The notes under the pieces: generated by a model | The model's database searches: none | What the model saw: the letters and a program-made list of their open reading frames with translations, nothing else | What the model was told of the DNA's origin: nothing | Assembly (NCBI GenBank): GCA_965658655.1 | Contig: CBFHTA010000002.1 | Location: 1 to 64,000 of the forward strand | Source: Candidatus Babelota bacterium | GTDB lineage: Bacteria; Babelota; Babeliae; Babelales; CAIQNR01 | DNA length: 64,000 nucleotides | Direction of reading: 5' to 3' | Shown: positions 3 to 62,786 of the stretch, one piece after another | Numbering within the stretch: the first letter of the stretch is position 1 | Layout of the letters: each line of letters starts with the position of its first letter | Made by a program: the position numbers and the translations under genes

Positions 3-134
3 GTAAGTACAGCATCAGATAAAAAGCGTAAAAGAACTCACACAGAGCAAAGATCTTATGAGTGTGAAATTTGTAATAAAAGTTTTGCGCATTCTAGTAA
101 TTTAAACAAACATAAGCAAATACACGAAAAATAA
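3..134 (+). CDS. Partial (5'-truncated by window) member of the secreted C2H2 zinc-finger family; a single finger
   Basis: Manual translation from nt 3: [43 protein letters not shown]. Same NLS-like motif and HEK* end as the downstream paralogs. Confidence 0.9.
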   Translation, partial: VSTASDKKRKRTHTEQRSYECEICNKSFAHSSNLNKHKQIHEK

Positions 135-156
135 ATAGGTATATAAGGAGGTTATA

Positions 157-948
157 ATGAATAAAGTATGGATGTTGGGATTGCTTTTTATTTCAATAGG
201 GCAATTGAATGGAATGGATGCTGGTTTAAATGTGCTACCATTAGAAGGTCTGACAGATAAAGATGTATTGATGTTTGGCTCAAATATGTTTAATGAAGAG
301 GATGTATCTCAGATTTTAACTGCGTTGGCTTCTTTTCAAGAAGTACAGACTCCTCAAGCTGTGCAAAGTAGTGAACAATCTTTGGCTGTAGGGCCAGCAA
401 GTACAGCATCAGATAAAAAGCGTAAAAGAACTCACACAGAGCAAAGATCTTATGAGTGTGAAATTTGTCATAAAGGTTTTAAGAAAAGTAGTTATTTAAA
501 AGGTCATGCACTAGTTCATAAAGATGAAAGACCTTTTGTATGTGAAACTTGTCATAGAGGTTTTAAAGTAAGTGGCGATTTAAGAAAACATAAAAGAGTT
601 CATACAGATGAGAGACCTTTTGTATGTGAAATTTGTGATAAAGGTTTTAAACGAAGTGGCGAGTTAAGAAGGCATAAAAGAATTCATTCAGGGGAAAGAC
701 CTTATAAGTGTGAAATTTGTGATAAAGGTTTTAAAGTAAGTGACGATTTAACAACACATATAAGAGTTCATACAGGGGAAAAACCTTTTGTATGTGAAAT
801 TTGTGATAGAGGTTTTGTGACATCTAGTAATTTAACAACACATATAAGAGTTCATACAGGGGAAAAACCTTTTGTATGTGAAATTTGTGATAGAGGTTTT
901 GCGACATCTAGTAATTTAAGCAGACATGAAAAAAGACATGAAAAATAA
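157..948 (+). CDS. Signal-peptide C2H2 (Kruppel-type) zinc-finger protein, 6 fingers
   Basis: [20 protein letters not shown] leader, DKKRKR, six C-x2-C-x3-F-x5-L-x2-H-x3-H repeats with TGEKP/SGERP linkers; SD TAAGGAGGT upstream. Confidence 0.95.
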
Positions 949-969
949 ATAGGTAATAAGGAGGTTATA

Positions 970-1680
970 ATGAATAAAGTATGGATGTTGGGATTACTTT
1001 TTATTTCAATAGGGCAATTGAATGGAATGGATGCTGCTTCAAATGTACCGCCATTAGAAGACATAACAGATGAAGATGTAGCAATGTTTGGTGTGAGTAT
1101 GCCGACGGAAAGTGAAGTAGTGGCATCTCAGGCTTTAATTGCGTTGTCTACTGGTCAAAGAGAGATTTTTCAAGTTGAGCAAAGTAGCGAACAATCTTTG
1201 GCTGTAGGAGCAGTGAGTACAGCATCGGATAAAAAACATGAAAGAGTTCATGCAGAGAAAAGACCTTATAATTGCTCATATTGTGATAGAAGTTTTACGC
1301 AACTTGGTAATTTAAAAATACATGAAAGAATTCATACAGGGGAAAGACCTTATAAGTGTTCAGATTGTGATAAAAGTTTTACTCGAGGTGGTGCTTTAAA
1401 AGAACATGAAAGAATTCATACAGGGGAAAGATCTTATAAGTGCTCATATTGTGATAAAAGTTTTACGCAACTTGGTGGTTTAAAACAGCATAAAAGAGCT
1501 CATGCAGAGAAAAGACCTTATAAGTGTGAAATTTGTCATCAAGGTTTTAACCAAAGTGGTCATTTAACAGCACATATAAGAACTCATACAGGGGAAAAAC
1601 CTTATAAATGTGAAATCTGTGATAGAAGTTTTAAGCAATCCGGTAATTTATCAAGACATAAAAAAGTACATGAAAAATAA
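970..1680 (+). CDS. Signal-peptide C2H2 zinc-finger protein, 5 fingers
   Basis: Same leader; five fingers with TGERP/TGEKP linkers; KKRKR replaced by KKHER; SD TAAGGAGGT. Confidence 0.95.
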   Translation: MNKVWMLGLLFISIGQLNGMDAASNVPPLEDITDEDVAMFGVSMPTESEVVASQALIALSTGQREIFQVEQSSEQSLAVGAVSTASDKKHERVHAEKRPYNCSYCDRSFTQLGNLKIHERIHTGERPYKCSDCDKSFTRGGALKEHERIHTGERSYKCSYCDKSFTQLGGLKQHKRAHAEKRPYKCEICHQGFNQSGHLTAHIRTHTGEKPYKCEICDRSFKQSGNLSRHKKVHEK

Positions 1681-1701
1681 ATAGGTAATAAGGAGGTTAT
1701 A

Positions 1702-2325
1702 ATGAATAAAGTATGGATGTTGGGATTACTTTTTATTTCAATAGGGCAATTGAATGGAATGGAGACTGGTTTAAATATACTACCATTAGAAGGTCTGACA
1801 GATCAAGATGGGGCGATGTTTGGCTTAGATATGTTGAATGAAGAGGATGCATCTCAGATTTTAACTGCGTTGGCTTCTTTTCAAGAAGTAGAGATACCTC
1901 ACGATCAGCAAAGTAGTGAACAATCTTTGGCTGTAGGGCCAGCAAGTACAGCATCGGATAAAAAGCGTAAAAGAACTCACACAGAGGAAAGATCTTATGT
2001 ATGTGGAATTTGTTATCAAGGTTTTAAGCAAGATCGTCATTTAAGAAGCCATGCACTAGTTCATAAAGATGAAAGACCTTTTGTATGTGAAATTTGCCAT
2101 AGAGGTTTTAAAGTAAGTGGCGATTTAAAAAAACATACAGTAGTTCATTCAGATGAAAGACCTTATAAGTGTGAAATCTGTGATCAAGGTTTTAAACGAA
2201 GTAACGATTTAAAAAAACATACAGTAGCTCATACAGATGAAAGACCTTATAAGTGTGAAATCTGTGATAAAAGTTTTAGGTATTCTAGTAATGTATCAAG
2301 ACATAAAAAAGTACATGAAAAATAA
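1702..2325 (+). CDS. Signal-peptide C2H2 zinc-finger protein, 4 fingers
   Basis: Same leader, DKKRKR, four fingers; SD TAAGGAGGT. Confidence 0.95.
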   Translation: MNKVWMLGLLFISIGQLNGMETGLNILPLEGLTDQDGAMFGLDMLNEEDASQILTALASFQEVEIPHDQQSSEQSLAVGPASTASDKKRKRTHTEERSYVCGICYQGFKQDRHLRSHALVHKDERPFVCEICHRGFKVSGDLKKHTVVHSDERPYKCEICDQGFKRSNDLKKHTVAHTDERPYKCEICDKSFRYSSNVSRHKKVHEK

Positions 2326-2346
2326 ATAGGTAATAAGGAGGTTATA

Positions 2347-3237
2347 ATGAATAAAGTATGGATGTTGGGATTATTTTTTATTTCAATAGGGCAATTGAAT
2401 GGAATGGATGCTGCTTCAAATGTACCGCCATTAGAAGACATAACAGATGAAGATGTAGTAATCTGTGGTGTGAGTATCCCGACGGAAAGTGAAGTAGTGG
2501 CATGTCAGGCTTTAATTGCTTTGGGTACTGGTCAAAGAGAGCAACAAGTACAGATTTCTCAAGCTGTGCAAAGTAGTGAACAATCTTTGGCTGCAGGTTC
2601 AGCAAGTAGAGCCTCGGATAAAAAGCGTAAAAGAACTGACACAGAGGAAAGACCTTTTGTATGTGAAATTTGTCATCAAGGTTTTAAGAAAAGTAGTCAT
2701 TTAACAGGCCATGCATTAGTTCATACAGGTGAGAGACCTTTTGTATGTGAAATTTGTGATAAAGGTTTTAAACGAAGTGACGAGTTAAGAAGACATGCAG
2801 TAGTTCATACAGGTGAGAAATCTTTTGTATGTGAAATTTGTGATAAAGGTTTTAAACGAAGTGGCGAGTTAAGAAGGCATAAAAGAATTCACACAGGGGA
2901 AAGACCTTATAAGTGTGAAATTTGTCATCAAGGTTTTATGCAAAATTGTAATTTAACAGCACATAAAAGAATTCATTCAGGGGAAAGACCTTATAGGTGT
3001 GAAATTTGTCATAAAAGTTTTACGCAACTTGGTGGTTTCAAAGCACATAAAAGAATTCATGCAGGGGAAAGACCTTATAGGTGTGAAATTTGTCATCAAG
3101 GTTTTAAGCAAAGTAGTCATTTAAAAGGACATAAAAGAATTCACACAGGGGAAAGACCTTATAAGTGTCAAATTTGTCATCAAGGTTTTAAGCAAAGTAG
3201 TCATTTAAAAGACCATGAAAAAACACACGAAAAATAA
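2347..3237 (+). CDS. Signal-peptide C2H2 zinc-finger protein, 7 fingers
   Basis: Same leader, DKKRKR, seven fingers including an RSDELRR helix; SD TAAGGAGGT. Confidence 0.95.
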   Translation: MNKVWMLGLFFISIGQLNGMDAASNVPPLEDITDEDVVICGVSIPTESEVVACQALIALGTGQREQQVQISQAVQSSEQSLAAGSASRASDKKRKRTDTEERPFVCEICHQGFKKSSHLTGHALVHTGERPFVCEICDKGFKRSDELRRHAVVHTGEKSFVCEICDKGFKRSGELRRHKRIHTGERPYKCEICHQGFMQNCNLTAHKRIHSGERPYRCEICHKSFTQLGGFKAHKRIHAGERPYRCEICHQGFKQSSHLKGHKRIHTGERPYKCQICHQGFKQSSHLKDHEKTHEK

Positions 3238-3258
3238 ATAGGTAATAAGAAGGTTACA

Positions 3259-3897
3259 ATGAATAAAGTATGGATGTTGGGATTATTTTTTATTTCAATA
3301 GGGCAATTGAATGGAATGGAGACTGGTTTAAATGTACCGCCATTAGAAGACATAACAGATGAAGATGTAGTAATGTGTGGTGTGAGTATCCCGACGGAAA
3401 GTGAAGTAGTGGCATGTCAGGCTTTAATTGCTTTGGGTACTGGTCAAAGAGAGCAACAAGTACAGATTCCTCAAGCTGTGCAAAGTAGTAAACAATCTTT
3501 GGCTGCAGGTTCAGCAAGTAGAGCCTCGGATAAAAAGCGTAAAAGAACTCACACAGGGGAAAGACCTTATAAGTGTGAAATTTGTCATAAAGATTTTACG
3601 GAAAAGAGTAGTTTAAAAACACATATAAGAGTTCATACAGGGGAAAAACCTTTTGTATGTGAAATTTGTCATAAAGGTTTTACGCAAAAGTGTAGTTTAA
3701 AAAAACATACAGTAGTTCATACAGGGGAAAGACTTTATAAGTGTGAAATTTGTCATAAAGGTTTTAAGCAAAGTAGTTATCTAAAAGGACATACAGTAGT
3801 TCATACAGGGGGAAGACCTTATGAGTGTGAAATTTGTCATCAAAGTTTTAGGCATTCTAGTAATTTATCAAGACATAAAAAAACACACGAAAAATAA
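3259..3897 (+). CDS. Signal-peptide C2H2 zinc-finger protein, 4 fingers
   Basis: Same leader, DKKRKR, four fingers; SD weakened to TAAGAAGGT. Confidence 0.95.
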   Translation: MNKVWMLGLFFISIGQLNGMETGLNVPPLEDITDEDVVMCGVSIPTESEVVACQALIALGTGQREQQVQIPQAVQSSKQSLAAGSASRASDKKRKRTHTGERPYKCEICHKDFTEKSSLKTHIRVHTGEKPFVCEICHKGFTQKCSLKKHTVVHTGERLYKCEICHKGFKQSSYLKGHTVVHTGGRPYECEICHQSFRHSSNLSRHKKTHEK

Positions 3898-3941
3898 ATA
3901 GGTAATAAGAAGGTTACAATGAATAAAGTATGGATACTGTT

Positions 3942-6662
3942 TTATAGTAAACCATAGTCTTTGCAACGACGATGAACAGAAGAGCGGTTAACGCCTAAGA
4001 ATTCTGCAATTCTATTTTGATTTTTAAATTTGTTCCAAAGTAGTGCCATTATCTGTCCATCTTTAAGAGCATGCTTACCCATTTTTGCTGCTTGTGCTAA
4101 TTGTGGGTCGGATATATTAAAGGCAGGATTGAATTTTGTTTTTTCAAAAGCACTTTCGTTTGTTGTTTTTGCCATAATAAGTGTTTCTACTTTGCGTTTG
4201 AGTTCATGCAGGCTTGCTGGCTTCTGTTTGAATATTCTCTTCTTCTCTTGATCTGTAAGGTTAATGACTTTAGCTGTATTGTCTTCTGCAAGCGCTTGAT
4301 CTGCAAATCCTTCTACCAAACTTCCGATTTCTGTCGATTCAAGTGTTACAAGCGAAGGCATAGTTAATGAAGTGCGTTTAAGTTCATTATAGAGAGATTG
4401 GGAGAATGTTCCTTCTTGAACCATAAGCTTTAGATTTTGATTGCTTGTGGCAATAATACGTACGTCTGTTTGTATCTTCTTATTACTTTTAAATACTTTG
4501 TAGAATCCGTATTTAATGCATTCAGCAAGATTTTCTTGAGATTCTAAATCTAAGAAATGAATGTTTTTAATAACCAAAGTGCCTTTTTTGTTTAATTTCT
4601 CTAGAAGAGGTTGATTTGTGTTTGAGCTGAAGAGGTTATTAATACCAAACAGAGAAATAGGTATTTCAGAAGTAGAAACCCGTCCATCAAGCTCAAGAAT
4701 ATGCAAAGTTTCTCGTAAACTAATATGGTGCAAAATCTCTACCGTAGGAGTTAAGTCTTCGCTTGGTAAAGAAAGTAATAAGGCTTTTTTACTTAAAGCA
4801 GACTTGAGAAGCTCTACTTTAAAGTTTACAAACTGTTCTTCGTTGCTTGGAATGAGTTTATTAATTAGTCTGCCAGACTCAGTTGTTTCTAGATAGAGTA
4901 AATAATCCCAATTTGAAGGATCATGAATGGCATCTAAGAGATGCTTAATAGTGTCGGAGATTTCTGGGTGGTGTGCAACAAAAATAGCGCCATTAGCTTC
5001 CGGATGGGGCATGCCAAGTAACACAATCTGTTTGCCTTTTGCGTTACTTACCATTTGAGTTTGTGCAGCTTTGTATGAAGCAATTTGATTAACCATGGTT
5101 TTAAGTTTTTTGGTTAAAGGTTCTTCAGTTTGTGTATTAGGGTTTATTCCTAAAATATCTGTAGCGGCTTTATTGCCAAAGGTGAATCGACGACTTTTGT
5201 AGAAGAATACTCCAATGGTATGATCTTTATTGTTTCTCAAGAAAGAGCGAATGCTCTCTTTATAGCGATTAATTTCTTGATGTTTACTGTAAAGTTCTTC
5301 AATCATCTCTTTCTTTTGCTTGAATAATTCTTGCAGATTTCTGGTTTGAAGTAGGTTGATAACTTTCGATAAATAACTACCAAATACTAGTATTTCATCT
5401 CGTTCTACATTGGTATAAAGGTTGCCGTTTCGAGCACTTTGTTGCACGGTGATATAAGCGATAATCGTATTATTGCTATAAATAGGGAGAAAAATGTCTG
5501 CATTAATTTTTTCTAAAAAAGAGAGTAGGGCTCCCTGGATTTTAGTAGGGTTATGGAAATGATCGTAAGCAAGTTCATCGTAAATGAGGATTTTACGTTC
5601 TTGTAAAAAATGTAGTGTGTTCGGATCTTCATTAAATTTATCGTTATGAATTTCTAAAAATGTTTCAATTGTTGCTTGTTGATAAGGTAAGGTTACAGCA
5701 TCGTTTTTTTGATGATCAGTGCTATGTAGTGATCGGATTGATAAAGACGTGTTTTCCGGAGCTACAGAAAAGGCTTTATGAAAGAAGTGTTGAGTAAGTA
5801 TTTTAACTTCTGTGGTATTAGATGCCTTTCCTAAGTCTTCTAAAACGCTTTTAAAGTCATTAACAAAGTTAAATTTTTGGTCATCGTGAACATGCTCGTG
5901 TAGACCAAAAAAACGCAATCCAATAATTCGTTTAATGCAATGGTAAATTGCCATAGATAAAAATATAGCTGAAAAGCTTACCGCGGGAAGACAGTTTGCC
6001 ATGGTGTTTGCAACAAATTTAAATGGGTAAAGTTCCCAGATATTAGCAAGAAGATGAGGAAACAAAAAGAACTGCAGACAGGTTTTCAGTTGTAAACGTA
6101 AAATGGATGGTAGTTGTTTATCACGTAAAGAATGAAAACCTGAGATAATAGTGGTTGGTACTAGAAGGAAGAAAATATAAATAGATTCCCACTCTCGTAC
6201 AGTAAACTCCATAGGTAAAGGATATGCTCCCTTGCATGTTCCTATATATGATAATGCTGCAAAGAAACCAAAACTTATGGCTCCTAACATATAGTGATAA
6301 AATTTAATTTTAAAAGTTCTGCTTTTAAATGTTTCCACAAAAATAAAGAGCGAATGATACATTACAATGTTTATTGCCCATGCAAATCTTTTTATAAAAA
6401 TATTAATGTGTTCATAGGAATCATTAAGGAAAAGTTTTTTTGAAAGAGCAAAGATCCAAGAGAAGTCTTCAAATGTGGCTACTGCAAGTACAATGCAAAG
6501 ATAAATCCAAGACATCGAAATTTGTTTAGTTCGCGCTATATGTGTAAAGAAAAAACCCAATAAAGTTACTTTAAAAACAAAAGCAAGTGTTCTTACAGCA
6601 AGTAGGAATTCGGTGCTTCCTAACGTGTCATACAAAAATATGTAACAAGATTGTAGCGTCAT
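3942..6662 (-). CDS. Membrane-anchored transcriptional regulator: multi-TM N-terminus, GAF/PAS-like middle, degenerate sigma54-activator-type AAA+ domain, Fis-type HTH
   Basis: About 7 hydrophobic segments in the first 250 aa; GTLVIKNI...DVRIIATSNQNLKLMVQEGTFSQSLY aligns to the NtrC-family GTLFLDEI...DVRIIAATNRDL..GxFRxDLYYRL pattern; C-terminal NQNRIAEFLGVNRSSVHRR. Confidence 0.8.
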   Translation of the reverse strand: MTLQSCYIFLYDTLGSTEFLLAVRTLAFVFKVTLLGFFFTHIARTKQISMSWIYLCIVLAVATFEDFSWIFALSKKLFLNDSYEHINIFIKRFAWAINIVMYHSLFIFVETFKSRTFKIKFYHYMLGAISFGFFAALSYIGTCKGAYPLPMEFTVREWESIYIFFLLVPTTIISGFHSLRDKQLPSILRLQLKTCLQFFLFPHLLANIWELYPFKFVANTMANCLPAVSFSAIFLSMAIYHCIKRIIGLRFFGLHEHVHDDQKFNFVNDFKSVLEDLGKASNTTEVKILTQHFFHKAFSVAPENTSLSIRSLHSTDHQKNDAVTLPYQQATIETFLEIHNDKFNEDPNTLHFLQERKILIYDELAYDHFHNPTKIQGALLSFLEKINADIFLPIYSNNTIIAYITVQQSARNGNLYTNVERDEILVFGSYLSKVINLLQTRNLQELFKQKKEMIEELYSKHQEINRYKESIRSFLRNNKDHTIGVFFYKSRRFTFGNKAATDILGINPNTQTEEPLTKKLKTMVNQIASYKAAQTQMVSNAKGKQIVLLGMPHPEANGAIFVAHHPEISDTIKHLLDAIHDPSNWDYLLYLETTESGRLINKLIPSNEEQFVNFKVELLKSALSKKALLLSLPSEDLTPTVEILHHISLRETLHILELDGRVSTSEIPISLFGINNLFSSNTNQPLLEKLNKKGTLVIKNIHFLDLESQENLAECIKYGFYKVFKSNKKIQTDVRIIATSNQNLKLMVQEGTFSQSLYNELKRTSLTMPSLVTLESTEIGSLVEGFADQALAEDNTAKVINLTDQEKKRIFKQKPASLHELKRKVETLIMAKTTNESAFEKTKFNPAFNISDPQLAQAAKMGKHALKDGQIMALLWNKFKNQNRIAEFLGVNRSSVHRRCKDYGLL

Positions 6663-12290: not shown

Positions 12291-14429
12291 ATGAATAAAA
12301 ATCGAAAGATCAGTATGGTTCGTAAAATATTATTAGTGACACTATTAGTAAATATAGTGGCAAGTCCACTGCGTGCAATGCAGTCAATGCTACGTCTTGT
12401 TTATGTGGGTGTACGTACGGCTCCACAGAAAGGTATGTTAGGTCAAATTGTTAAAGAGCAATTAATGCATAAAGGTGTGCGCTCTGTAGCTAATGATACT
12501 TTAAAGATTACCCAAGAAACTCCAAAAACGGTACTTTTTGCTGTAGCTCAGAAACAAAAACTTCAAGCAATTGATGGAATTCAAAAACAACCAAGAACTT
12601 TATTAGTTGCTCCAAATAAAAAAAATAAACTGGAATCATATAATACAGATATTGGTGAGAGCCAAATTCCTACTCAAGACGTCTTGAAATCTCTTGTAGA
12701 AAGTAAACATCAAAAAGAACAGTATGAAGATAATAAAAGTACATGGTTTACTTTTATTAAGATAAGTTTAATAAGTTTTTATTTAAATTATAGAGTTAAA
12801 AAAGTATCTGCTTTAGAAGAATCTAAAGAAATGTCAGAGCAAGAGCTTAAACAGATAGAAATGGTTAAAAGTTTAATTAAAAAAGAACGTGTTTCAGCAG
12901 ATGATTCATGTTTAATAAAAGTTATATACGATAATGGAACAAAGGAATTTAGAGAATGTATTATAGATGAATTAGTCACTATAATAGATTTTACTAAAAT
13001 AGAAGAAAATAAAAAATACGGAAATTTGAAAGATATAATTACTCTTGTTGTTGCAAAATTGCCAATAGATAAGCAGATAGGGTTTGTTAGGAGCACTTTA
13101 TTAAAAGAGAATATTTCAAGAGATGAATTACATATAATAAAAAAAATATATGAAAATGGAGTAAGTGAATTTAAAAAAGGTCTTCTTGAAAAATTAGATA
13201 ATGTAATAGATTTTGCTCATTTAGGTAAACATTACTTTCCTTATCTAGAAGAATTAATTATTGATTTTTTTATGGGATTAAATACAGAAAATAAGATAAG
13301 AAATATTGAAAAGATATTTAAAAAAGATAAAGTTTCACAAAGTGATTTATTTCTTATGGAAGAAATTTATAAAAAAGAAAAAAATGTTATAAAAAATTTT
13401 ATAGAAGAGTGCTTTTTTGAAGGTTGTTTTGCAAGTGAAAAAAAACATACACCTACTGATAAGTATTTTCTTAATTATTTTACATCATGTGTGCAAAATA
13501 AAAATTTACCCCAAGACCTTAAGAACTTAACTCATCGATTGAATCGATATTCTGCTGATAATATTAATAACAATAAAATAACTTTTTTCCATGGGCAAGC
13601 ATGGTATTGGAATTTGCAAGCCATAATTGTTAAGAAATTGTATGAATTTAAACATAGAGTAAAAATAGATGGAAATTTTACTTTTTTACGCTTTGTTCAA
13701 GCAGAGATGGGTTTATGTGAAAAGCATCAAAAGAAACTTGTTCAAACAGGGATAAGGGGAACACCAACTTTTTTTTCAGAAGAGCGTTCAAATGTTATTT
13801 TTGTAAATCTTGCTCTTTTTGCAAATGGTCCTGGCTCAAACACTGTTGGGTATGTTTTAAATAATAATGATCAGAGCTTATTGATGAGGCGGAAAAAAGA
13901 TCTATGCCGATTTGTAAAGATTTTTAAAGATTTTGGTTTTGAAAAAGAAATTCAAGAGCTACAAAGAATACAGCCTACTCTTTTAAAAGATCTTACAAAT
14001 TTGCATTTTTCAGCATCTTCCTATGGTAATTTTGTTACTATTGTTATGCCTAAGCAGCTGGCATCTCAAGTTGCTTATCCAGGAAAAACAGCTGGTCCTA
14101 GAATTAAATACAAAAATATGGATGATATTGTTAGCATTGTAGAGAATTTTGAAAGAATGCCCTTTGAGAATGAGTTTTGCATTGTGCTTGGTCCAAATAT
14201 AGTTGATCCAATTGAGGCAAAAAAAACGGGCATTGAAATTAAATCATGGAATACCGCAAACCCAAAGATTATTGTTTTGCGTGATGCATTGATTGATGAA
14301 ATTATTGCGTGGTGTGAGGTGGCTCAAAATCAAACTAAATCTTATGCAGAGCTTGCTGCGTGGGGGCAGCAGATAGTTGATGATGCAAAAAAGAAACTAG
14401 AAGAGGCAAAGTACTTAAGTGATAGGTAA
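12291..14429 (+). CDS. Large hypothetical secreted protein (effector candidate); start may be MVRKILL
   Basis: Signal-like RKILLVTLLVNIVASPLRAM; visibly AT-rich, Lys/Ile-rich helical middle. Confidence 0.75.
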   Translation: MNKNRKISMVRKILLVTLLVNIVASPLRAMQSMLRLVYVGVRTAPQKGMLGQIVKEQLMHKGVRSVANDTLKITQETPKTVLFAVAQKQKLQAIDGIQKQPRTLLVAPNKKNKLESYNTDIGESQIPTQDVLKSLVESKHQKEQYEDNKSTWFTFIKISLISFYLNYRVKKVSALEESKEMSEQELKQIEMVKSLIKKERVSADDSCLIKVIYDNGTKEFRECIIDELVTIIDFTKIEENKKYGNLKDIITLVVAKLPIDKQIGFVRSTLLKENISRDELHIIKKIYENGVSEFKKGLLEKLDNVIDFAHLGKHYFPYLEELIIDFFMGLNTENKIRNIEKIFKKDKVSQSDLFLMEEIYKKEKNVIKNFIEECFFEGCFASEKKHTPTDKYFLNYFTSCVQNKNLPQDLKNLTHRLNRYSADNINNNKITFFHGQAWYWNLQAIIVKKLYEFKHRVKIDGNFTFLRFVQAEMGLCEKHQKKLVQTGIRGTPTFFSEERSNVIFVNLALFANGPGSNTVGYVLNNNDQSLLMRRKKDLCRFVKIFKDFGFEKEIQELQRIQPTLLKDLTNLHFSASSYGNFVTIVMPKQLASQVAYPGKTAGPRIKYKNMDDIVSIVENFERMPFENEFCIVLGPNIVDPIEAKKTGIEIKSWNTANPKIIVLRDALIDEIIAWCEVAQNQTKSYAELAAWGQQIVDDAKKKLEEAKYLSDR

Positions 14430-28188: not shown

Positions 28189-31100
28189 TTACACCAATCC
28201 TCTTACACCGCTGTCAGTAGCGATGAGAAGCTTTCCAGTACTACCTGCATTTGATATGCCATGTAGGTAAGAAGCCTCTGAGGTTGAACCTGGGTTATAT
28301 ACTAGATGTGCGTGTGGGCTTAGGTTGTTCCACCATTTTGCATGTGATGCGTATGGTTGACCGTAGAGGTTAGCTGTGTTTCCGTCTGATACTACACGGA
28401 ATTTTTGAACAATACGACGAGAACCATCAGAGTAGAAGCCCATTATTGGAGGCTCTTGATCGAAGAGTGTAGGTTCAGTTGCTGTTCCATCGAAAGCGTT
28501 AAACACAGTTGGGTTGTAAGCCCAGTTACCCCATGTTGTACCGTTATTTAGTGCGTCACCGCGTCCTTCAGTCAGAGGTCTTCTGCTCATTTGGTGAATG
28601 TCTACTGCAAAGTAAACGCCTGATCTCTCTTTATGTTCGGCAATACGATTGAACCAGAATGTTGAAGGGTTACGTGTATAAGCAGGTTCATCGAAGGTAA
28701 GCTGGTATGTGTTGTCTGTATTAGGTTCGCTCATTTGTACCCAACCACAAATACCTTGTGCATTGTCTGGATTGCTACCAACATTGTAGTCATTGGTACC
28801 AATAGAGCAAGTTGTGGTCCAAATTCCGTCGTTTGTTAGCATCATGAGTTGTTCTTGTTCACCTATTTGACCAGTACGAGCCTGTGCACCTGAAGTTTGA
28901 GCATCTGAGGTTGTTACGGTTATTACAAAGTCATAGATACGTGCTGGAAGTGTAGAACCTTGGGCGCTACCTGCTATGCTACCTTGTTTTCCTGAAGATG
29001 CAGTTACACAGAAATCTGTGTTTAGAGCGGCAGCAGTACTTTGACGTGTTAAGCGGAAGATTCTGTCTGGTGTTGCTTCATCGTATCCGTGAGTAAGAAT
29101 GTATACTGCACCTCCGCGAGAAACAATCTTAGAAGGAACACCGCTTATACGAGTAAGTTTCTGCCATGTTCGTGCATTTGCTGCTGCTACATCACCAGTA
29201 GTACGGAATGGAGGCATGTTTAGATCGTGTACATCACGAGTATCGAAACCTGCACCAAGATTTGCTGCAGCCCATACATATAATTCACCATTTCCTGGGT
29301 TATTAACATCTTCTACCCCAGCAAAGAAATAACCAGTGTTTGTACTTGAGGCTCTTTCGTTCCACCCAGAGTAAGCAAGGCAACAAACCACTTTTCCAGC
29401 AGCAACTGTTGTAGTTTTTAATGTTCCTGTTGTGCTGTAATCGAAAGCAATGTTGTGTACTACACCTGTATTGGTAGAGAGGAGTTTTCCTGCACTATGT
29501 GCAACACTTGTTCCAGAAGAACCAACTGCAGATCCTGTTATAGCAAAAGATACTTTACCTGCATCGTTACCAAACATAGTAAGACGAGTTGGAGTTGTTG
29601 CACCCCACCCAGTTGTTGAAGAGTTCAAGTCGCAAATTGCAGTACAGTTACCAGCAAGGTGAGACGATGAGTTAAGATTATAGATCAATCCGGTGGAGTC
29701 TTGTGCTGGAGCAGTAGTATTTGCATCTTTTGAATCAGAAGCCCAAGAAGTTAAACGTAAAAGTTTCTTAGTTGTGTCTACACCCCAGATACGAGAAGAA
29801 ATAGCGTCTACTGCAAAGAAGCTAATTCGCCCGTTGTTTGCATTTGTAGCACTATAACCAAGATTTGCAGGTGCAACTCTTTGCCATTCTGTCCAATGAT
29901 CAATTTGACCATGTCTGTTGAAGCATGCTTGTGAGTGCCAAATACCAGGAGAATCTGTATTAGATGCAGCAGCGTCAATAGAACAATAAACAGCATCGCC
30001 ATCTACCCACATTGCGCTTGGCTTCGTTGTTGCGGCACATGGAAGTGGACCGTTACCAACGCGAACTGCGGCGGTGTTTGTTAAGAAAAGGTCACCAGCA
30101 TTTGTTGCAACAGTTGAGTAGTCTCCTGTTGTTACATCTGCAAATTTACCGTTATTAGCTGCTGTAGCATTTCCAACTACAAGAGGTGTAGCCCATACGC
30201 GGTTAGAAACAGCAGAAGAACCAGCAATTGCCGTTGAGCCACCGTGTCCGTTACCACCGTTTACAATTAAGTATGCAAAACGAGTTCCGTCTGAGGGTCC
30301 AGTTGAAGTGTGCATTACTTTAAGGTTGTGGTAAGTAAGAGACGCACGAGTCCCTGCAGTACTAGAACCGCCACCACCAACACCAACAATGTGAGAACCT
30401 GTTAGAACAAGAGATCCACCTGCTTCTGTGTCACCGCTTTGATCTAAGTTTGTTAGAGTGTTGTTGTCAGGATCTACTTGGAATATTTGCACACCCCAAC
30501 CACCTGTGTGGTCGTATTCTACGTTTGAAGTTGTGTAGTTTACACCAACATAAAGACGTTTTAATGTTTGGCTATAGTACATAGCTGGAGCGCGGCCGTT
30601 TTCTCCGAGTTGAACATTTGTATCAAGCGCTGACCCAAAATTTAGAGAGTAGGTTTGGCTAAGGTCGCTTGAGACAACAGAAGATGGAGCTTTAGCTCTT
30701 TGAGTCATTGTGTAATCGTCTTCTCCACATTCAACCATTACAACACCGTCACCTGCATGATACCCAAAGTTTCCACGATTTGCATCGTGACCAGCATCAT
30801 CTTTAACAGCTACAAAAGCATACGTTTTATTGTTAGTTGTTCCATAGGCGTTACCTGCAACCACTGTCATTGTATAGCAACATGCAGCTGTTGAATTAGC
30901 ATCTGTAAGTTTCAAAGCGTTAGGGTTAGAAGGAATTCCGGTTGTTGTAATAACCATCAATGGGTGGCCTACATTGCTTGTTGCAAGCGAATCGTTGTTG
31001 CCTTGAGAACTCAAGAAGAAGATTTTTGCTTTAGAGAAATTCTCTGGACTAGTAATGTCGTTTGCTACAGCTACGGCTTGGATACTGCTATTTCTGATAG

Positions 31101-31425
31101 CCATTAAACCAGCAGCTGTGCTTGATTCGGCGATACCTGTGTAGGTTGGAACCGTGTCGAGCATTGCGTGAGAACCCGCAGAATTAGCTGTAACTGTGTT
31201 GCTTGCAAAACCAAGAGCGTCTTCACTTGCTTGTTTGCCTAGACCAAATACCATAGTTCCAGATGGTCTATGGAACGCTGCAGCTTGTGCAACCTTTTGG
31301 AACGTTTCTCCTGAAGAGGCACCGCCATCTGTGTTAGGCACTACTTTTGTTACGGCATGTAAACGCGGGGCGCATACAGCAGAGCAAAGTAGTAGTAATA
31401 AACTATATTTCATGAATTGTTTCAT
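28189..31425 (-). CDS. Large secreted beta-rich (propeller/adhesin-like) surface protein
   Basis: Signal ...APRLHA; rich in G/S/T/A/N; recurrent short beta-strand patterns. Confidence 0.75.
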   Translation of the reverse strand: MKQFMKYSLLLLLCSAVCAPRLHAVTKVVPNTDGGASSGETFQKVAQAAAFHRPSGTMVFGLGKQASEDALGFASNTVTANSAGSHAMLDTVPTYTGIAESSTAAGLMAIRNSSIQAVAVANDITSPENFSKAKIFFLSSQGNNDSLATSNVGHPLMVITTTGIPSNPNALKLTDANSTAACCYTMTVVAGNAYGTTNNKTYAFVAVKDDAGHDANRGNFGYHAGDGVVMVECGEDDYTMTQRAKAPSSVVSSDLSQTYSLNFGSALDTNVQLGENGRAPAMYYSQTLKRLYVGVNYTTSNVEYDHTGGWGVQIFQVDPDNNTLTNLDQSGDTEAGGSLVLTGSHIVGVGGGGSSTAGTRASLTYHNLKVMHTSTGPSDGTRFAYLIVNGGNGHGGSTAIAGSSAVSNRVWATPLVVGNATAANNGKFADVTTGDYSTVATNAGDLFLTNTAAVRVGNGPLPCAATTKPSAMWVDGDAVYCSIDAAASNTDSPGIWHSQACFNRHGQIDHWTEWQRVAPANLGYSATNANNGRISFFAVDAISSRIWGVDTTKKLLRLTSWASDSKDANTTAPAQDSTGLIYNLNSSSHLAGNCTAICDLNSSTTGWGATTPTRLTMFGNDAGKVSFAITGSAVGSSGTSVAHSAGKLLSTNTGVVHNIAFDYSTTGTLKTTTVAAGKVVCCLAYSGWNERASSTNTGYFFAGVEDVNNPGNGELYVWAAANLGAGFDTRDVHDLNMPPFRTTGDVAAANARTWQKLTRISGVPSKIVSRGGAVYILTHGYDEATPDRIFRLTRQSTAAALNTDFCVTASSGKQGSIAGSAQGSTLPARIYDFVITVTTSDAQTSGAQARTGQIGEQEQLMMLTNDGIWTTTCSIGTNDYNVGSNPDNAQGICGWVQMSEPNTDNTYQLTFDEPAYTRNPSTFWFNRIAEHKERSGVYFAVDIHQMSRRPLTEGRGDALNNGTTWGNWAYNPTVFNAFDGTATEPTLFDQEPPIMGFYSDGSRRIVQKFRVVSDGNTANLYGQPYASHAKWWNNLSPHAHLVYNPGSTSEASYLHGISNAGSTGKLLIATDSGVRGLV

Positions 31426-34641: not shown

Positions 34642-37600
34642 CTAAGATATAAATGCCTTAATGAAGTTAGTTACTTTATGACCAATTGATTTTACTGTTT
34701 CCCATAGATTAGTGAACCAGTTTTCTGTGTTTTGGGTTGTTATAGTTTCACTTGTTGATTGGTCTGAGTCTGTAGCACTAATTTTGTTACGTCTTGTTAA
34801 CGGCCTTTTTTGTTGTTGGTAATTAACAGGGCGATCAACAGGTACAAATTTTGATGATGTCGACCTTTTTTCGTCTCTATCGGTAACAGAACTTATTACA
34901 ATTGGAGTTTTAGGTTTTCGTAGCCACGATTTTATATCGCCAACAGGTGAAGTAAATCCTGTAAATCTTTCACCAATAGTTTTGCTTGAAGGCAATCCCA
35001 CTCGTGTTCCCAACGATTTGTTTCTTGGGGGTATAGGTGGTGCAAAGGTACTTGATGGTATAGCTGCAGGTACGGTTTGAGCAATGTTTTTCATTGTGGG
35101 TTTCTGTTCTTGTTTATTGTTTATAATACTATGATTTTGACGATTGTTGTCTGCATTTTCCTTTATTTGATCGTTATTATTTTTTGAATCGGTATCTTTT
35201 TGTATGTCTTCTTCTTTGATACTTCGTGGTGTAGAAGCAACTTCATCTTCTGTTCCTGTGTCTACAGGTGTAACAGTAGAACCGTTTTCGTCATCGCCAC
35301 CTCTTTCTGTCTCCTCTGAACTATCTGTATGAATAGGTCTTGGAAAACGAGGCATTGGATCTGTTAGTATATCTACTGTATCAGTATTGTCAGTATCAGT
35401 ATTGTCAGTATTAGTATTGTCAGTATTAGTATTGTCAGTATTAGTATTGTCAGTATTAGTATTGTCAGTATTAGTAGACATATTATGCGTCACTGTTACT
35501 AATGGTCTTTCTTTTGGGGTAACGGGTGGAACAACTCTTGGTGATTTTATCACTCTTCTTGGGGGGGTATAGGGGGCAATTCTTCGTTTGCTTCCAAAAA
35601 GCTCTTCGAAATATTGTATTAATTTTCCAACTCTTCCTCGACTAGGTTTCTCTATTCTTCTTAGAGGAATACGAGGAATACGTGGACAAGGGACTCCTCC
35701 TCTTTTGTCAACAACATTTGGTTTAACTTTTTTTCTGTCCCCAAAACGAAGACCAACCTTTGAAGGTTGCGCCACTCTTCTTGTATCAACATGTGGACGA
35801 CCGATTGTAGCAATATCCGGGTTAACTGGACGATTAAGACCATTTTTAAATTCTTCAACTCTTCCTCTTAGAGGAACACGTGGACGACCGACTCCTCCTC
35901 TTTTGGGAACAACATTTGGGTTAACTTTTTTTCTGTCCCTAAAACGACGACCAAACTTTGTCGGTTGCGCCGCTCTTCTTGTAGCAGCAACATCTGGGAC
36001 AACTCTTTCTGCGCCTCTAGAGAAAGGATTACTCAAAAAGTTTCTAAATTGTTCCCACATTCCTTGACTAGGTTGTTCTATGTCTCTTGGTCCAGTAGAT
36101 GGACGACCGTTTTGTTCGCTTATTGGTTGAGAAGCTTTTTTTGTACGTTTTTTTCTTTTTTTGACTTTATTCCAGTAGTTTCTGAATTTATTCATAGGGA
36201 ATTTCTTTATAGGCTTTTTAAAGTTTTTTGATGGTTCTGAAGTGCCTGTTTGTGATTCACTAGTCTTAGCTACTTTTTCTGCTTGTATCCTTCTTTTGGG
36301 AAAAATATGTGGAGTGTCGTTTGTTGGTATTTTTTTTACTTGTGTCGGTCTGGGGTTACTCTGTTTTATGCCTCCAGAAAGCCTTTCAAGGAGATTTGTT
36401 AATGCTGTAACGTTACCCTGTTCTATCTCTTCAGAAGCTTTTTTTGTACGTTTTTTTCTTTTTTTGAAGTTATTCCAGTAGTTTCTGAATTTCTTTATAG
36501 TGAATTTCTTTATAGGCTTTTTAAAGTTTTTTGATGGTTCTGAAGTGCCTGTTTGTGATTCACTAGTCTTAGCTCCTTTTCCTGCTTGTATCCTTCTTTT
36601 GGGAAAAATATGTGGAGTGTCGTTTGTTGGTATTTTTTTTACTTGTGTCGGTCTGGGGTTACTCTGTTTTATGCCTCCAGAAAGCCTTTCAAAGAAGTTT
36701 TTTAATGTTTTAACGTTACCTTGTTGTATCTCACTAATTTCAGCTACTTGGCCTGGTTGTACTGCTCTTCTTGGAGCAATATGTGGAATTTTGTCTAGTC
36801 GTATTTTTTCTTTCAGATTACGTACTTTTTGTGTTCGGTTATTATTATTAAACCATATATTTTTAAGCTCAGCAGCCTCGGCTTCAAGTAATCGAGTACC
36901 ATTATTTTTTGCATCTCGCCCAACTGATTTTCGTACTGCCGGTTGTCGCGCAGGATGAACAGGCAATGGGTTTAGTGGTTTTATTGGATCCGTAAGTGTT
37001 TTTCGTGGAAGTTGTTCAAGAATGCTTCTACGATTCTTCAGTTGTTGTATGATTCTTTTTGCAGCTTGGCGTGTTTTTGGGTGTACGCTCGCGGCACCAG
37101 TTGCTGCAAAACCTAATAATTTTACAAGTTCATCTTGGCGATCGGTAGTAAATTCTTTTATTCGTTCCAACGCAGAAGGGTTATTCTCTGTAGTTAGCAC
37201 TTTGCTGGGTTGGTCTTTATGCAGTACCAATGCTTTTGATTGGTTAGTAGCGGGTAATAGTGCTCTTCTGTTGTGTTGTTGTGTATAAAATGTTTGTAAC
37301 ATTTTTTCAAGCTCTGGTGCTAATGCTTGTGCAGCTTCTTGTGGAGTTTTTTGTCCTCCAGGGTTGAATATATTTGTTTCTAATATTTTATCTAGAAGTT
37401 TTTTTAAATCTTTTCTGTTAACAGTAATTCTTTGTGTTGGTCCTGTTTCTTTATTCTTTTGTTTAATAGGAACAAGTCCTGTTTCTTTATCTGTGTATGG
37501 TACAATTGCACTTGAACGTTGGTTTGTTGTTTGTTCAAAATAGTCCGCTAATTTATCCGCTATTTCAGCAGTGGTGGTTTGTGCTCTGTTGTATTGAGTA

Positions 37601-45229: not shown

Positions 45230-45532
45230 ATGAAATTGTACGTAGGAAACTTGAGCTTTAACTTGTCAGATAACGATCTTAAAGCAAAATTTGAAGAATT
45301 TGGTGCAGTTGAATCTGCTAACATTATTACAGATCGTGAAACTGGCCGCTCTAAGGGTTTTGGTTTCGTTGAAATGGTTGACGCTGCTAATGCACAAGAA
45401 GCTATTGCACAACTTAACGGTTCTGACTACGAAGGCCGTAAAGTAATCGTTAACGAAGCTCGTCCTCGTCCAGAACGTACTGGTGGTGGCAGCCGTGGTC
45501 CACGTGGTGGAAATGGCGGAGGTCGCTGGTAG
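45230..45532 (+). CDS. RRM RNA-binding protein with Gly-rich tail
   Basis: RNP2 LYVGNL, RNP1 KGFGFVEM. Confidence 0.95.
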   Translation: MKLYVGNLSFNLSDNDLKAKFEEFGAVESANIITDRETGRSKGFGFVEMVDAANAQEAIAQLNGSDYEGRKVIVNEARPRPERTGGGSRGPRGGNGGGRW

Positions 45533-62468: not shown

Positions 62469-62786
62469 ATGAATATAACAGAGGTCAAGATCTATCCGGC
62501 TAGGGAGAGAGGCACTAGGCTCAAGGCATACGCAACAATAGTTTTCGACAACGCCTTTATAGTAAGGGACTTGAAAGTTATTGAAGGCGAAAAAGGATTG
62601 TTTGTTTCCATGCCTTCACGCCGAAGAAAAGATGGTTCTTTTAGAGACATCGCTCATCCGCTCAATGCAGAAATGCGTAAGCATATAGAAGAGCACGTAG
62701 TAGGTGAGTACGAAGTTGTAGAAAAATCAGGAGGTATTCCAGCCGATGATGGTGGGGATGATTCTGAGGCTCCAGCCGACGAGTAA
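62469..62786 (+). CDS. spoVG: SpoVG family nucleic-acid-binding protein
   Basis: MNITEVKI, LKAYATIVFD, GLFVSMPSR, FRDIAHP. Confidence 0.95.
   Translation: MNITEVKIYPARERGTRLKAYATIVFDNAFIVRDLKVIEGEKGLFVSMPSRRRKDGSFRDIAHPLNAEMRKHIEEHVVGEYEVVEKSGGIPADDGGDDSEAPADE

Follow-up and report, generated by a model that had tools for sequence, protein, structure and literature searches.

The stretch of DNA considered here, below called the window, comprises the first 64 kb (from base 1) of contig C2 (CBFHTA010000002.1) in the genome of a Candidatus Babelota bacterium, and it begins with a tandem array of genes whose products combine a Sec-like leader, an acidic segment, mostly a basic cluster, and four to seven C2H2 zinc fingers. 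An earlier reading of the sequence alone (the original prediction) had described this as a head-to-tail array of five complete genes and one partial gene, and the list of open reading frames (ORFs) and the bases of the window agree with that description (Table 1). Also the Shine-Dalgarno (SD) sequences that it had reported in spacers of 21-22 bp are in place, as the spacers measure 22, 21, 21, 21 and 21 nt and AAGGAGG or AAGAAGG stands 7 nt upstream of each ATG, and the genes are uninterrupted open frames that, as claimed, have no introns. Gene structure, context, finger family, the content of secretion and disulfide-bond (Dsb) genes, variability and distribution have been computed directly, and we lean, with modest confidence, towards the view that the array forms an operon for DNA-binding effectors which diversify rapidly and which an intracellular energy parasite exports to the nucleus of its host.

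Table 1. Features of the zinc-finger array, its flank and a second zinc-finger locus (positions refer to the window unless another contig is named).
Feature	Position	Strand	Remarks
3' gene fragment, one C2H2 finger	3..134	+	stop 132-134; cut by contig start; PF00096 match 57-125
Spacer, 22 nt	135..156	+	Shine-Dalgarno AAGGAGG
Gene 1, 263 aa, six fingers	157..948	+	ORF and Pfam
Gene 1, leader	157-216	+	
Gene 1, acidic segment	~217-414	+	net charge -9
Gene 1, KKRKR	415-429	+	
Gene 1, fingers	451-945	+	
Gene 2, 236 aa, five fingers	970..1680	+	degenerate basic motif KKHER
Gene 3, 207 aa, four fingers	1702..2325	+	KKRKR
Gene 4, 296 aa, seven fingers	2347..3237	+	KKRKR
Gene 5, 212 aa, four fingers	3259..3897	+	KKRKR
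Final spacer copy, 21 nt	3898..3918	+	AAGAAGG variant
Gene-start relic, 17 nt	3919..3935	+	exact match to the initial 17 nt of the genes; array end
Flank outside the array, 906-aa membrane protein	3942..6662	-	convergent; sigma-54-activator-type AAA+ and HTH
Second zinc-finger pair, 205 aa each, five fingers	C1:478544-479954 (L139:2542-3955)	-	

The array is larger than its part in the window. At the end of contig C1 of the same assembly stands a seventh copy (full, C1:520259-520966, five fingers), which is followed by an identical spacer and the same 17-nt gene start, and the array therefore continues across the gap in the assembly with no fewer than seven copies, namely six complete ones (five in the window and the one on C1) plus the fragment. 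The duplicated unit begins in codon 6 of a gene and extends to the same codon of the following one, and the 17-nt string that is identical in the window and at the C1 end marks, as judged from the sequence, the breakpoint of this unit. After the relic in the window, the sequence diverges 6 nt short of the stop of the 906-aa gene. Consensus matching found neither a sigma-70-like site on the plus strand nor a terminator-like site inside the array, and two promoter-like sites, consensus matches only, lie in the 168-nt gap upstream of the C1 copy, which fits a single operon.

The fingers are, by every sequence-level measure, members of the classical C2H2 family (PF00096, PF13465). All 32 of them read C-X2-C-X12-H-X3-H, a pattern that reproduces the predicted counts of 6, 5, 4, 7 and 4 fingers plus one in the fragment; C, C, F, H and H are invariant, and L occupies helix position 4 in 30 fingers. 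The linkers had been described as TGEKP-type, and all 25 inter-finger linkers have in fact five residues, 12 of them being exactly TGE[KR]P. A Pfam scan, one of the checks proposed earlier, gives whole-protein E values for zf-C2H2 of 1.6e-39, 4.6e-31, 4.6e-20, 8.1e-37 and 1.9e-21 for genes 1 to 5, with scores of 71-132 bits for zf-C2H2 (cut-off 25.2) and 71-160 bits for zf-H2C2_2 (cut-off 40) in all five; 13-22 families are matched per gene, including zf-C2H2_jaz and zf-met, and ROS_MUCR is absent among the Pfam matches of all five genes. The AF2 model of gene 1 has six beta-beta-alpha units at residues 99-262 (pLDDT 73-95 per 10-residue block). The closest solved chains found by phmmer are ZNF568 (E = 2e-92) and then CTCF, Aart, PRDM9 and Zif268, all of them DNA-bound arrays, and the ESM Atlas returns for gene 1 eukaryotic zinc-finger clusters only, the nearest being from arthropods and chordates. 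The fingers are thus of the canonical DNA-binding type, and binding of both DNA and zinc is predicted.

Like eukaryotic poly-finger factors such as ZNF568, PRDM9, CTCF and Zif268, the array proteins have canonical fingers, TGEKP-type linkers, tandem clustering and apparent selection at helix positions -1, 3 and 6, but unlike eukaryotic factors of the KZFP type they are encoded in what looks like a bacterial operon with SD sequences, an export leader replaces KRAB, SCAN or BTB, no relatives of the N-terminal module (N-module) have been found, and the proteins are short (207-296 aa). With the bacterial Ros/MucR proteins (PMC9779718, PMC7710501) they share a Cys2His2 zinc site that is DNA-binding there and predicted to be so in the array. 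Ros/MucR proteins, however, have a single atypical finger, are cytoplasmic and possess no leader, arrays or TGEKP linkers, whereas the array genes combine four to seven fingers with a leader. An identity with Ros/MucR was ruled out, as there is no profile match and the fingers are multiple.

Helix positions -1, 3 and 6 are the canonical base-contact positions of C2H2 fingers, and the entropy over the 32 fingers is highest at positions 6, 3 and -1 (3.0, 2.7 and 2.6 bits). In 24 nearest-neighbour finger pairs, a non-synonymous change is found in 39 of 96 contact codons (-1, 2, 3 and 6) as compared with 105 of 456 other codons (p = 8e-4). The pooled Nei-Gojobori dN/dS amounts to 2.65 for contact codons and to 1.08 for the remaining finger codons, but as the 24 pooled pairs are not independent and synonymous changes are few (4.7 at contact codons), this result is an indication of selection and no test. 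Hypervariable contact residues are the pattern known from fast-evolving animal zinc-finger genes. A dN/dS near unity, as seen in the N-module and at those finger codons that make no contact, would suit a recently amplified, functionless and decaying repeat, to which the degenerate basic motif, the one-finger copy and the 17-nt relic could be attributed as well. It is nevertheless very improbable that the array is just decaying, since the six complete copies retain open frames, SD sequences and all zinc ligands (32/32 fingers), change is concentrated at the contact residues, and the architecture is kept across families of the phylum.

The N-terminal leader consists of 20 residues, with MNK, a 12-residue uncharged hydrophobic run and QLNG, and contains neither a Cys (no lipobox) nor a twin arginine. 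Its sequence is the same in three window copies and carries L10F in the last two. The original prediction had called the leaders near-identical and Sec-like. The 60 nt indeed differ pairwise at only 0-2 positions among the six complete copies, with a dS of up to 0.3 in the rest of the N-module, and by heuristics the layout resembles a Sec signal. These heuristics, a strict and a loose one, are home-made and are not SignalP. The strict version accepts the C1 copy and all window genes but one (four of five), and six of the eight zinc-finger ORFs of the source genome as a whole. Among relatives, where 45 distinct finger ORFs with at least two fingers were collected (37 with an upstream ATG), it is positive for 22 of the 34 whose 5' end is complete, compared with 188 of 844 genome ORFs (odds ratio 6.4, p = 3e-7), and most of the negatives are still leader-like by eye; the loose version accepts 32 of 37 finger ORFs of the relatives and 389 of the 844 ORFs genome-wide.

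The high background of these heuristics, 22% (strict) to 46% (loose) of ORFs, speaks against export and would leave room for an alternative in which the proteins serve the bacterium itself, as regulators, at the nucleoid or in the envelope or periplasm, with the N-terminus as a membrane anchor or without use. Bacteria do have their own zinc-finger regulators of the Ros/MucR type (PMC9779718). Such an own use is nonetheless improbable. A positive N-terminus with a single hydrophobic segment places the fingers outside the cytoplasm whether it is cleaved or not, and this predicted topology would keep them away from the bacterial chromosome. The leader is moreover the most conserved part of the genes, leaders of unrelated sequence recur on the finger genes of the phylum, ROS_MUCR is not matched, and both the diversification of contact residues and the tandem expansion are unlike housekeeping regulators. 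It is very likely that the proteins are located outside the bacterial cytoplasm.

The array is bacterial and real, of which there can be hardly any doubt. The original prediction had considered that it might be a chimeric join, but this worry is refuted by synteny with a congener. On the C2 side the array runs into housekeeping genes that include thrS, argS, gyrA, lepA, tsf, frr, tig, ssb, murF, rsmH and ftsK, and on the C1 side into genes for an XerC-like recombinase, a penicillin-binding protein (PBP), S20 and FtsH. In an independent congeneric genome, a 6-kb contig (G001:C46) is collinear with C1:515352-520957 (PBP 90%, recombinase 81% amino acid identity) and ends in a gene with a like leader, the fingers of which are only 41-48% identical to those of the array. 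With the same flanks and such different fingers, the locus is therefore inherited and its cargo fast-evolving. At the C2 side, the contig of the congener stops within the 906-aa gene. This flanking gene is conserved in 5/5 relatives searched and is placed by the ESM Atlas among sigma-54 activator and sensor clusters. Its orthologues in four other genera of the family are not followed by a zinc-finger gene, and thus the array at this site is genus-specific.

That eukaryotic or giant-virus finger DNA has been misjoined to a bacterial bin, an artefact or contamination that might be suspected from the position of the array at two contig ends, from its codon usage and from the arthropod and chordate zinc-finger proteins as nearest Atlas clusters, is close to refuted. 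The array does deviate from the genome, with a GC3 of 0.15-0.20 as compared with a genome median of 0.27, and with a codon usage whose distance from that of the genome ranks at the 89th-99th percentile, which counts against an established bacterial effector and may reflect internal repetition or recent acquisition. Against an artefact, however, both contig ends run straight into bacterial housekeeping genes, the SD sequences, 21-nt spacers and lack of introns are bacterial, the same locus with the same flanks exists in the independent congener, and leader-bearing finger genes lie inside single-contig genomes of 1.1-1.2 Mb from the same phylum (L142, L156, L157). In addition, contamination of the source genome (928,713 bp in four contigs, GC 37%, estimated to be 95.4% complete) is estimated at 0.16%, and only four viral contigs match, the best with 46% identity.

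Tandem TLC translocase genes are a hallmark of energy parasites, and four genes for TLC ATP/ADP translocases (444-477 aa) lie in tandem at C1:489882-495556. With these genes and a size of 0.93 Mb, the genome looks like that of an energy-parasitic, obligate intracellular bacterium. Profile searches found SecA and signal peptidase I (Peptidase_S26), and a cluster on C1 resembles a type II secretion system (T2SS), with two secretins (N0/Secretin_N domains), a T2SSC (GspC)-like protein and a PilM-like protein; the T2SSE ATPase is encoded by a single gene in the genome. No match was obtained in this about 95% complete genome for VirB4, FHIPEP, TolC and VipB, the markers of the T4A, T3, T1 and T6 systems, and likewise none for DsbB, DSBA, Thioredoxin_4 and VKOR.

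The phylum set comprises 261 species genomes of 0.5-1.7 Mb and shows among the 100 of 261 genomes listed a single order, the one to which the window's genome belongs. This fits the Dependentiae, presumably a single order of small genomes. According to PMC4776705, T2SS components including two copies of gspD occur in every TM6 genome, and the small genome, the ATP/ADP translocases, the T2SS with two gspD copies and the lack of any other secretion system found match what PMC4776705 and PMC4378268 give for Dependentiae/TM6. On the strength of the secretion genes, the two secretins, the translocases and the small single-order genomes, the bacterium therefore probably belongs to the Dependentiae/TM6. 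In Babela massiliensis, according to PMC4378268, no secretion system other than the T2SS was found, a signal peptide is present on 79 of 126 ankyrin proteins, and the authors think that these are probably secreted into the amoeba cytoplasm. The array proteins would use the same route, in a genome that likewise has two gspD copies and ATP/ADP translocases, but their cargo is a DNA-reading finger array and not a protein-binding ankyrin array. Neither PMC4378268 nor PMC4776705 contains the word zinc.

From these data a mechanism can be proposed, in which leader cleavage, export, the site of action in the host, the binding to DNA and the sense of regulation are all inferred. The operon would yield a panel of small proteins, each with a Sec-type leader, that cross the inner membrane unfolded via Sec and have their leader cut off by signal peptidase I. 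In a periplasm without a recognisable Dsb system the proteins could stay reduced, and they would be released through the T2SS-like apparatus with its two GspD secretins, the sole secretion machine found. The mature proteins, with about 21-31 kDa as estimated from their lengths, would enter the host nucleus via KKRKR, via their basic fingers or by diffusion; basic fingers and passive diffusion are generally known ways of nuclear entry. There, four to seven fingers may read 12-21 bp of host DNA, a distinct sequence for each paralogue, and the acidic disordered N-terminal segment may recruit factors of the host, the simplest possibility being that it serves as an activation domain. Unequal crossing-over, between whole genes as well as between individual fingers, could generate new specificities in combination with positive selection on the contact residues. 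The presumed host is a marine protist; the two sequencing runs that contain the stretch (shares 0.85 and 0.53) are marine plankton metagenomes of one study.

The acidic segment of this mechanism is 66-71 aa long, has a net charge of -7 to -13 and contains about one quarter to one third hydrophobic residues; only 1.9% of the 65-aa windows of the proteome are as acidic as -8. AF2 gives a pLDDT below 50 with two short helices for residues 1-95 of gene 1, and the segment is predicted to be disordered. Apart from its own paralogues in the source genome, the N-module has no relatives among 1.84 billion representative proteins (profile search) or 5.8 billion clustered proteins, its patterns have no match in metagenome contigs, and those of the leader have none in genome or metagenome contigs. 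That the segment acts in transcriptional activation can be suggested only tentatively and is rather to be doubted. A second pair of zinc-finger genes in the source genome (Table 1), unrelated to the array and situated between lysS-like and DJ-1/PfpI genes, encodes a classical signal peptide ending ..VQS-AS, longer atypical linkers and a C-terminal KRKK. It has no acidic segment, so such proteins do not all need an acidic part.

The basic cluster KKRKR, which had been taken for a nuclear localisation signal (NLS), occurs in all complete copies but one (five of six) and in the fragment, four of the five window genes having it, and K/R runs of at least five occur in only 30 of 844 genome ORFs. 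As had been noted before, DKKRKR is missing from the gene at 970, where gene 2 reads KKHER instead. The proposal that KKRKR is an NLS may apply to most copies of the array but does not extend to its relatives, as the motif is absent from the congener orthologue and, even in a loose form, from 25 of 37 genes of the relatives, and the NLS argument is weaker than it looks.

Several observations weigh against the proposed nuclear effectors, in addition to the points already raised on dN/dS, codon usage and the background of leader calls. KKRKR is lacking both in the congener orthologue and in gene 2, K[KR]x[KR] (at most 45 residues before, or anywhere after, the fingers) is present in only 12 of the 37 genes of the relatives, and this loose motif occurs also in 6.8% of random 45-aa windows. 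C2H2 fingers can bind RNA or protein too. T2SS substrates end outside the bacterium, and if the bacterium lives in a vacuole, an extra step would be needed to reach the cytosol. Finally, no RNA run is listed among the sequencing runs matching the stretch.

Some of these points would be accommodated if the exported proteins had other targets, such as cytosolic RNA or protein of the host, or DNA elsewhere in the same cell (that of an organelle, a co-infecting giant virus or a further symbiont), or if they acted as blockers or repressors. The lack of conservation of KKRKR in relatives, the second family with leader and fingers but no acidic segment, the known RNA and protein binding of C2H2 fingers, and the scores of zf-C2H2_jaz and zf-met, which are RNA-binding types, agree with such targets. 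We regard them as unlikely, though they deserve to be kept in mind, because linkers of canonical length (25/25) that are often exactly TGE[KR]P (12/25) constitute the arrangement for continuous DNA reading, the maxima of variability lie exactly at the DNA-contact positions -1, 3 and 6, the top solved relatives are DNA-bound arrays, and KKRKR is kept in five of six complete copies, with K/R runs of this length being rare in the genome. Binding of the proteins to DNA in the nucleus is on balance favoured. Hints that they might count among the nucleomodulins, bacterial proteins that act in the host nucleus, come at the level of motifs from KKRKR, the basic fingers and the mature size of 21-31 kDa. 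The export to the host nucleus that the original prediction had envisaged is accordingly to be viewed in parts: the energy-parasite genome (0.93 Mb, four TLC genes), the Sec-like leader and the fingers of DNA-binding type speak for it, whereas the NLS motif is not conserved in relatives.

TAL effectors of Xanthomonas and Ralstonia consist of 33-35-residue helical repeats that each read 1 bp by repeat-variable diresidues, are delivered by type III secretion and have a C-terminal acidic segment. The array had been compared with them, and the shared logic of this analogy holds: in both cases modular repeats that read DNA, or are predicted to do so in the array, come together with a basic NLS-like cluster and an acidic segment, the differences between paralogues lie mostly at base-contact residues, and recombination of repeats gives new ones. 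No TAL effector feature is present by homology, however. There is no relation in sequence or fold, the units of the array are 28-residue zinc fingers with about 3 bp each, and its genes have a Sec-like leader and T2SS genes at their disposal in a genome without an FHIPEP match. Acidic segment and KKRKR are N-terminal in the array, and its presumed host is a marine protist and not a plant. An identity with TAL effectors was ruled out, as no TAL-type Pfam family or repeats and no marker of type III secretion were found. TAL effectors are named in PMC7819608, where the term C2H2 does not occur, and in PMC8760140.

Another parallel is phytoplasma SAP11. It has a Sec signal peptide and an NLS and changes transcription after entering the nucleus of the host, where its binding partners are transcription factors and not DNA, and since phytoplasmas have no outer membrane, Sec alone suffices for its release. 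The array genes resemble it in belonging to an apparently intracellular bacterium and in encoding small proteins with a plain Sec-like leader and an NLS-type motif, but they differ by their fingers of DNA-binding type and by the outer membrane that has to be passed.

A search for bacterial homologues, which had been recommended, shows that finger genes recur in the phylum and in other host-associated bacteria. PF00096 matches (E <= 0.001) exist in 81 of the 261 phylum genomes, 59 of which are above the curated cut-off, and in 13 of 15 genomes of the window's family; when gene 1 itself was used to search the source genome and its relatives, 20 of 41 genomes had a match, among them 12 of 15 of this family. 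The zinc-finger genes of the phylum usually appear to carry Sec-like leaders, and these are unrelated in sequence. Other tandem arrays with their own conserved leaders comprise eight genes (L154), three genes (L163) and at least six genes (L034/L130). In the source genome there is also a weak further match to gene 1 (C1:465676-465972, E = 1e-6) in a 271-aa open frame. At L142-L144 and L118, in other genomes of the phylum, very many neighbouring ORFs have signal-peptide-like N-termini.

Beyond the phylum, 185,579 species genomes were scanned with a pattern, and 553 stretches were confirmed. Among the best 80 of these 553, most are from Endozoicomonas, Sansalvadorimonas and other Endozoicomonadaceae, the rest including Ca. 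Endonucleobacter, a Cardinium endosymbiont, metagenome-assembled genomes (MAGs) of Bacteroidota and unnamed MAGs, and their fingers share 49-60% identity with the three final fingers of window genes. These bacteria have Krueppel-type arrays, often in tandem (L043, L095, L050), in common with the array considered here, and like it they are host-associated; unlike its genes, the Endozoicomonadaceae genes inspected start with a polar segment or directly with a finger, without a Sec-like leader, and some have C-X4-C. Large tandem families of leaderless poly-C2H2 genes were seen in Endozoicomonadaceae MAGs (L043, L095) and in a Sansalvadorimonas MAG (L042 and about 35 further loci), the Sansalvadorimonas genes having C-X4-C spacing and near-identical repeats. 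Kistimonas is described as enriched in zinc-finger proteins in one sentence of PMC12491435, which cites Ros/MucR work only. In Ca. Endonucleobacter, at least four complete tandem genes (L050, JASXSU010000001.1:1407121-1415390; 389-400 aa) share an N-terminus and have five fingers each. This organism is an intranuclear parasite of mussels; no paper pairing Endonucleobacter with zinc fingers turned up in the full-text literature search. On the viral side, only four contigs match, and the sole substantial match covers three fingers at 46% identity on a giant-virus-sized contig of 370,920 bp (L150, IMGVR_UViG_2706795115_000001).

It is conceivable from this distribution, although we would not yet put our trust in it, that the whole phylum, and in parallel Endozoicomonadaceae and other symbionts, took over poly-C2H2 arrays as secreted programmable trans-kingdom transcription factors, with paralogue-specific targets in host DNA, an acidic activation domain, diversification in an arms race, and delivery by Sec and T2SS.

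The original prediction knew of no described system of this kind, and in agreement with it a full-text search, the scope of which leaves out most subscription journals, found no description of secreted bacterial poly-C2H2 proteins. As far as the searches reach, this kind of effector has not yet been described in print, though an earlier mention elsewhere may exist. The finding would add to the eukaryote-like, nucleus-directed effectors known from bacteria. To our knowledge, sequence-specific effectors that read host DNA have been known so far essentially from the TAL effectors of plant pathogens. If the interpretation as nuclear effectors is true, the array represents a second solution, reached independently with the DNA-binding module that is most common in eukaryotes, and employed by a little-known phylum that parasitises protists and probably also by several symbionts of marine animals. 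It would also be a clear case of eukaryote-to-bacterium transfer with subsequent expansion under positive selection, and the plain Sec/T2SS route would be able to carry nuclear effectors. Finger specificities are measurable and partly predictable, hence the idea is directly testable, and predicted targets could point to the hosts and to the host genes that the parasites need to have switched.

Some further genes are of interest in their own right. About 3 kb upstream of the array, at C1:516679-517122 (L140:11680-12123), an ORF of 147 aa carries a domain of the type Bacterial toxin 37 (Ntox37; E = 5.7e-15). The window contains genes for an RRM-type RNA-binding protein (NF058537, E = 4e-35) at 45230-45532, in a genome of 0.93 Mb, and for a SpoVG homologue at 62469-62786. 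Of its 55 ORFs of at least 90 aa, 24 have no NCBIfam or Pfam match; these span 7666-59770 and include ORFs of 1710 aa (34642-39774), 1078 aa (28189-31425) and 712 aa (12291-14429), the last of which sits in a GC trough of 0.26-0.31.

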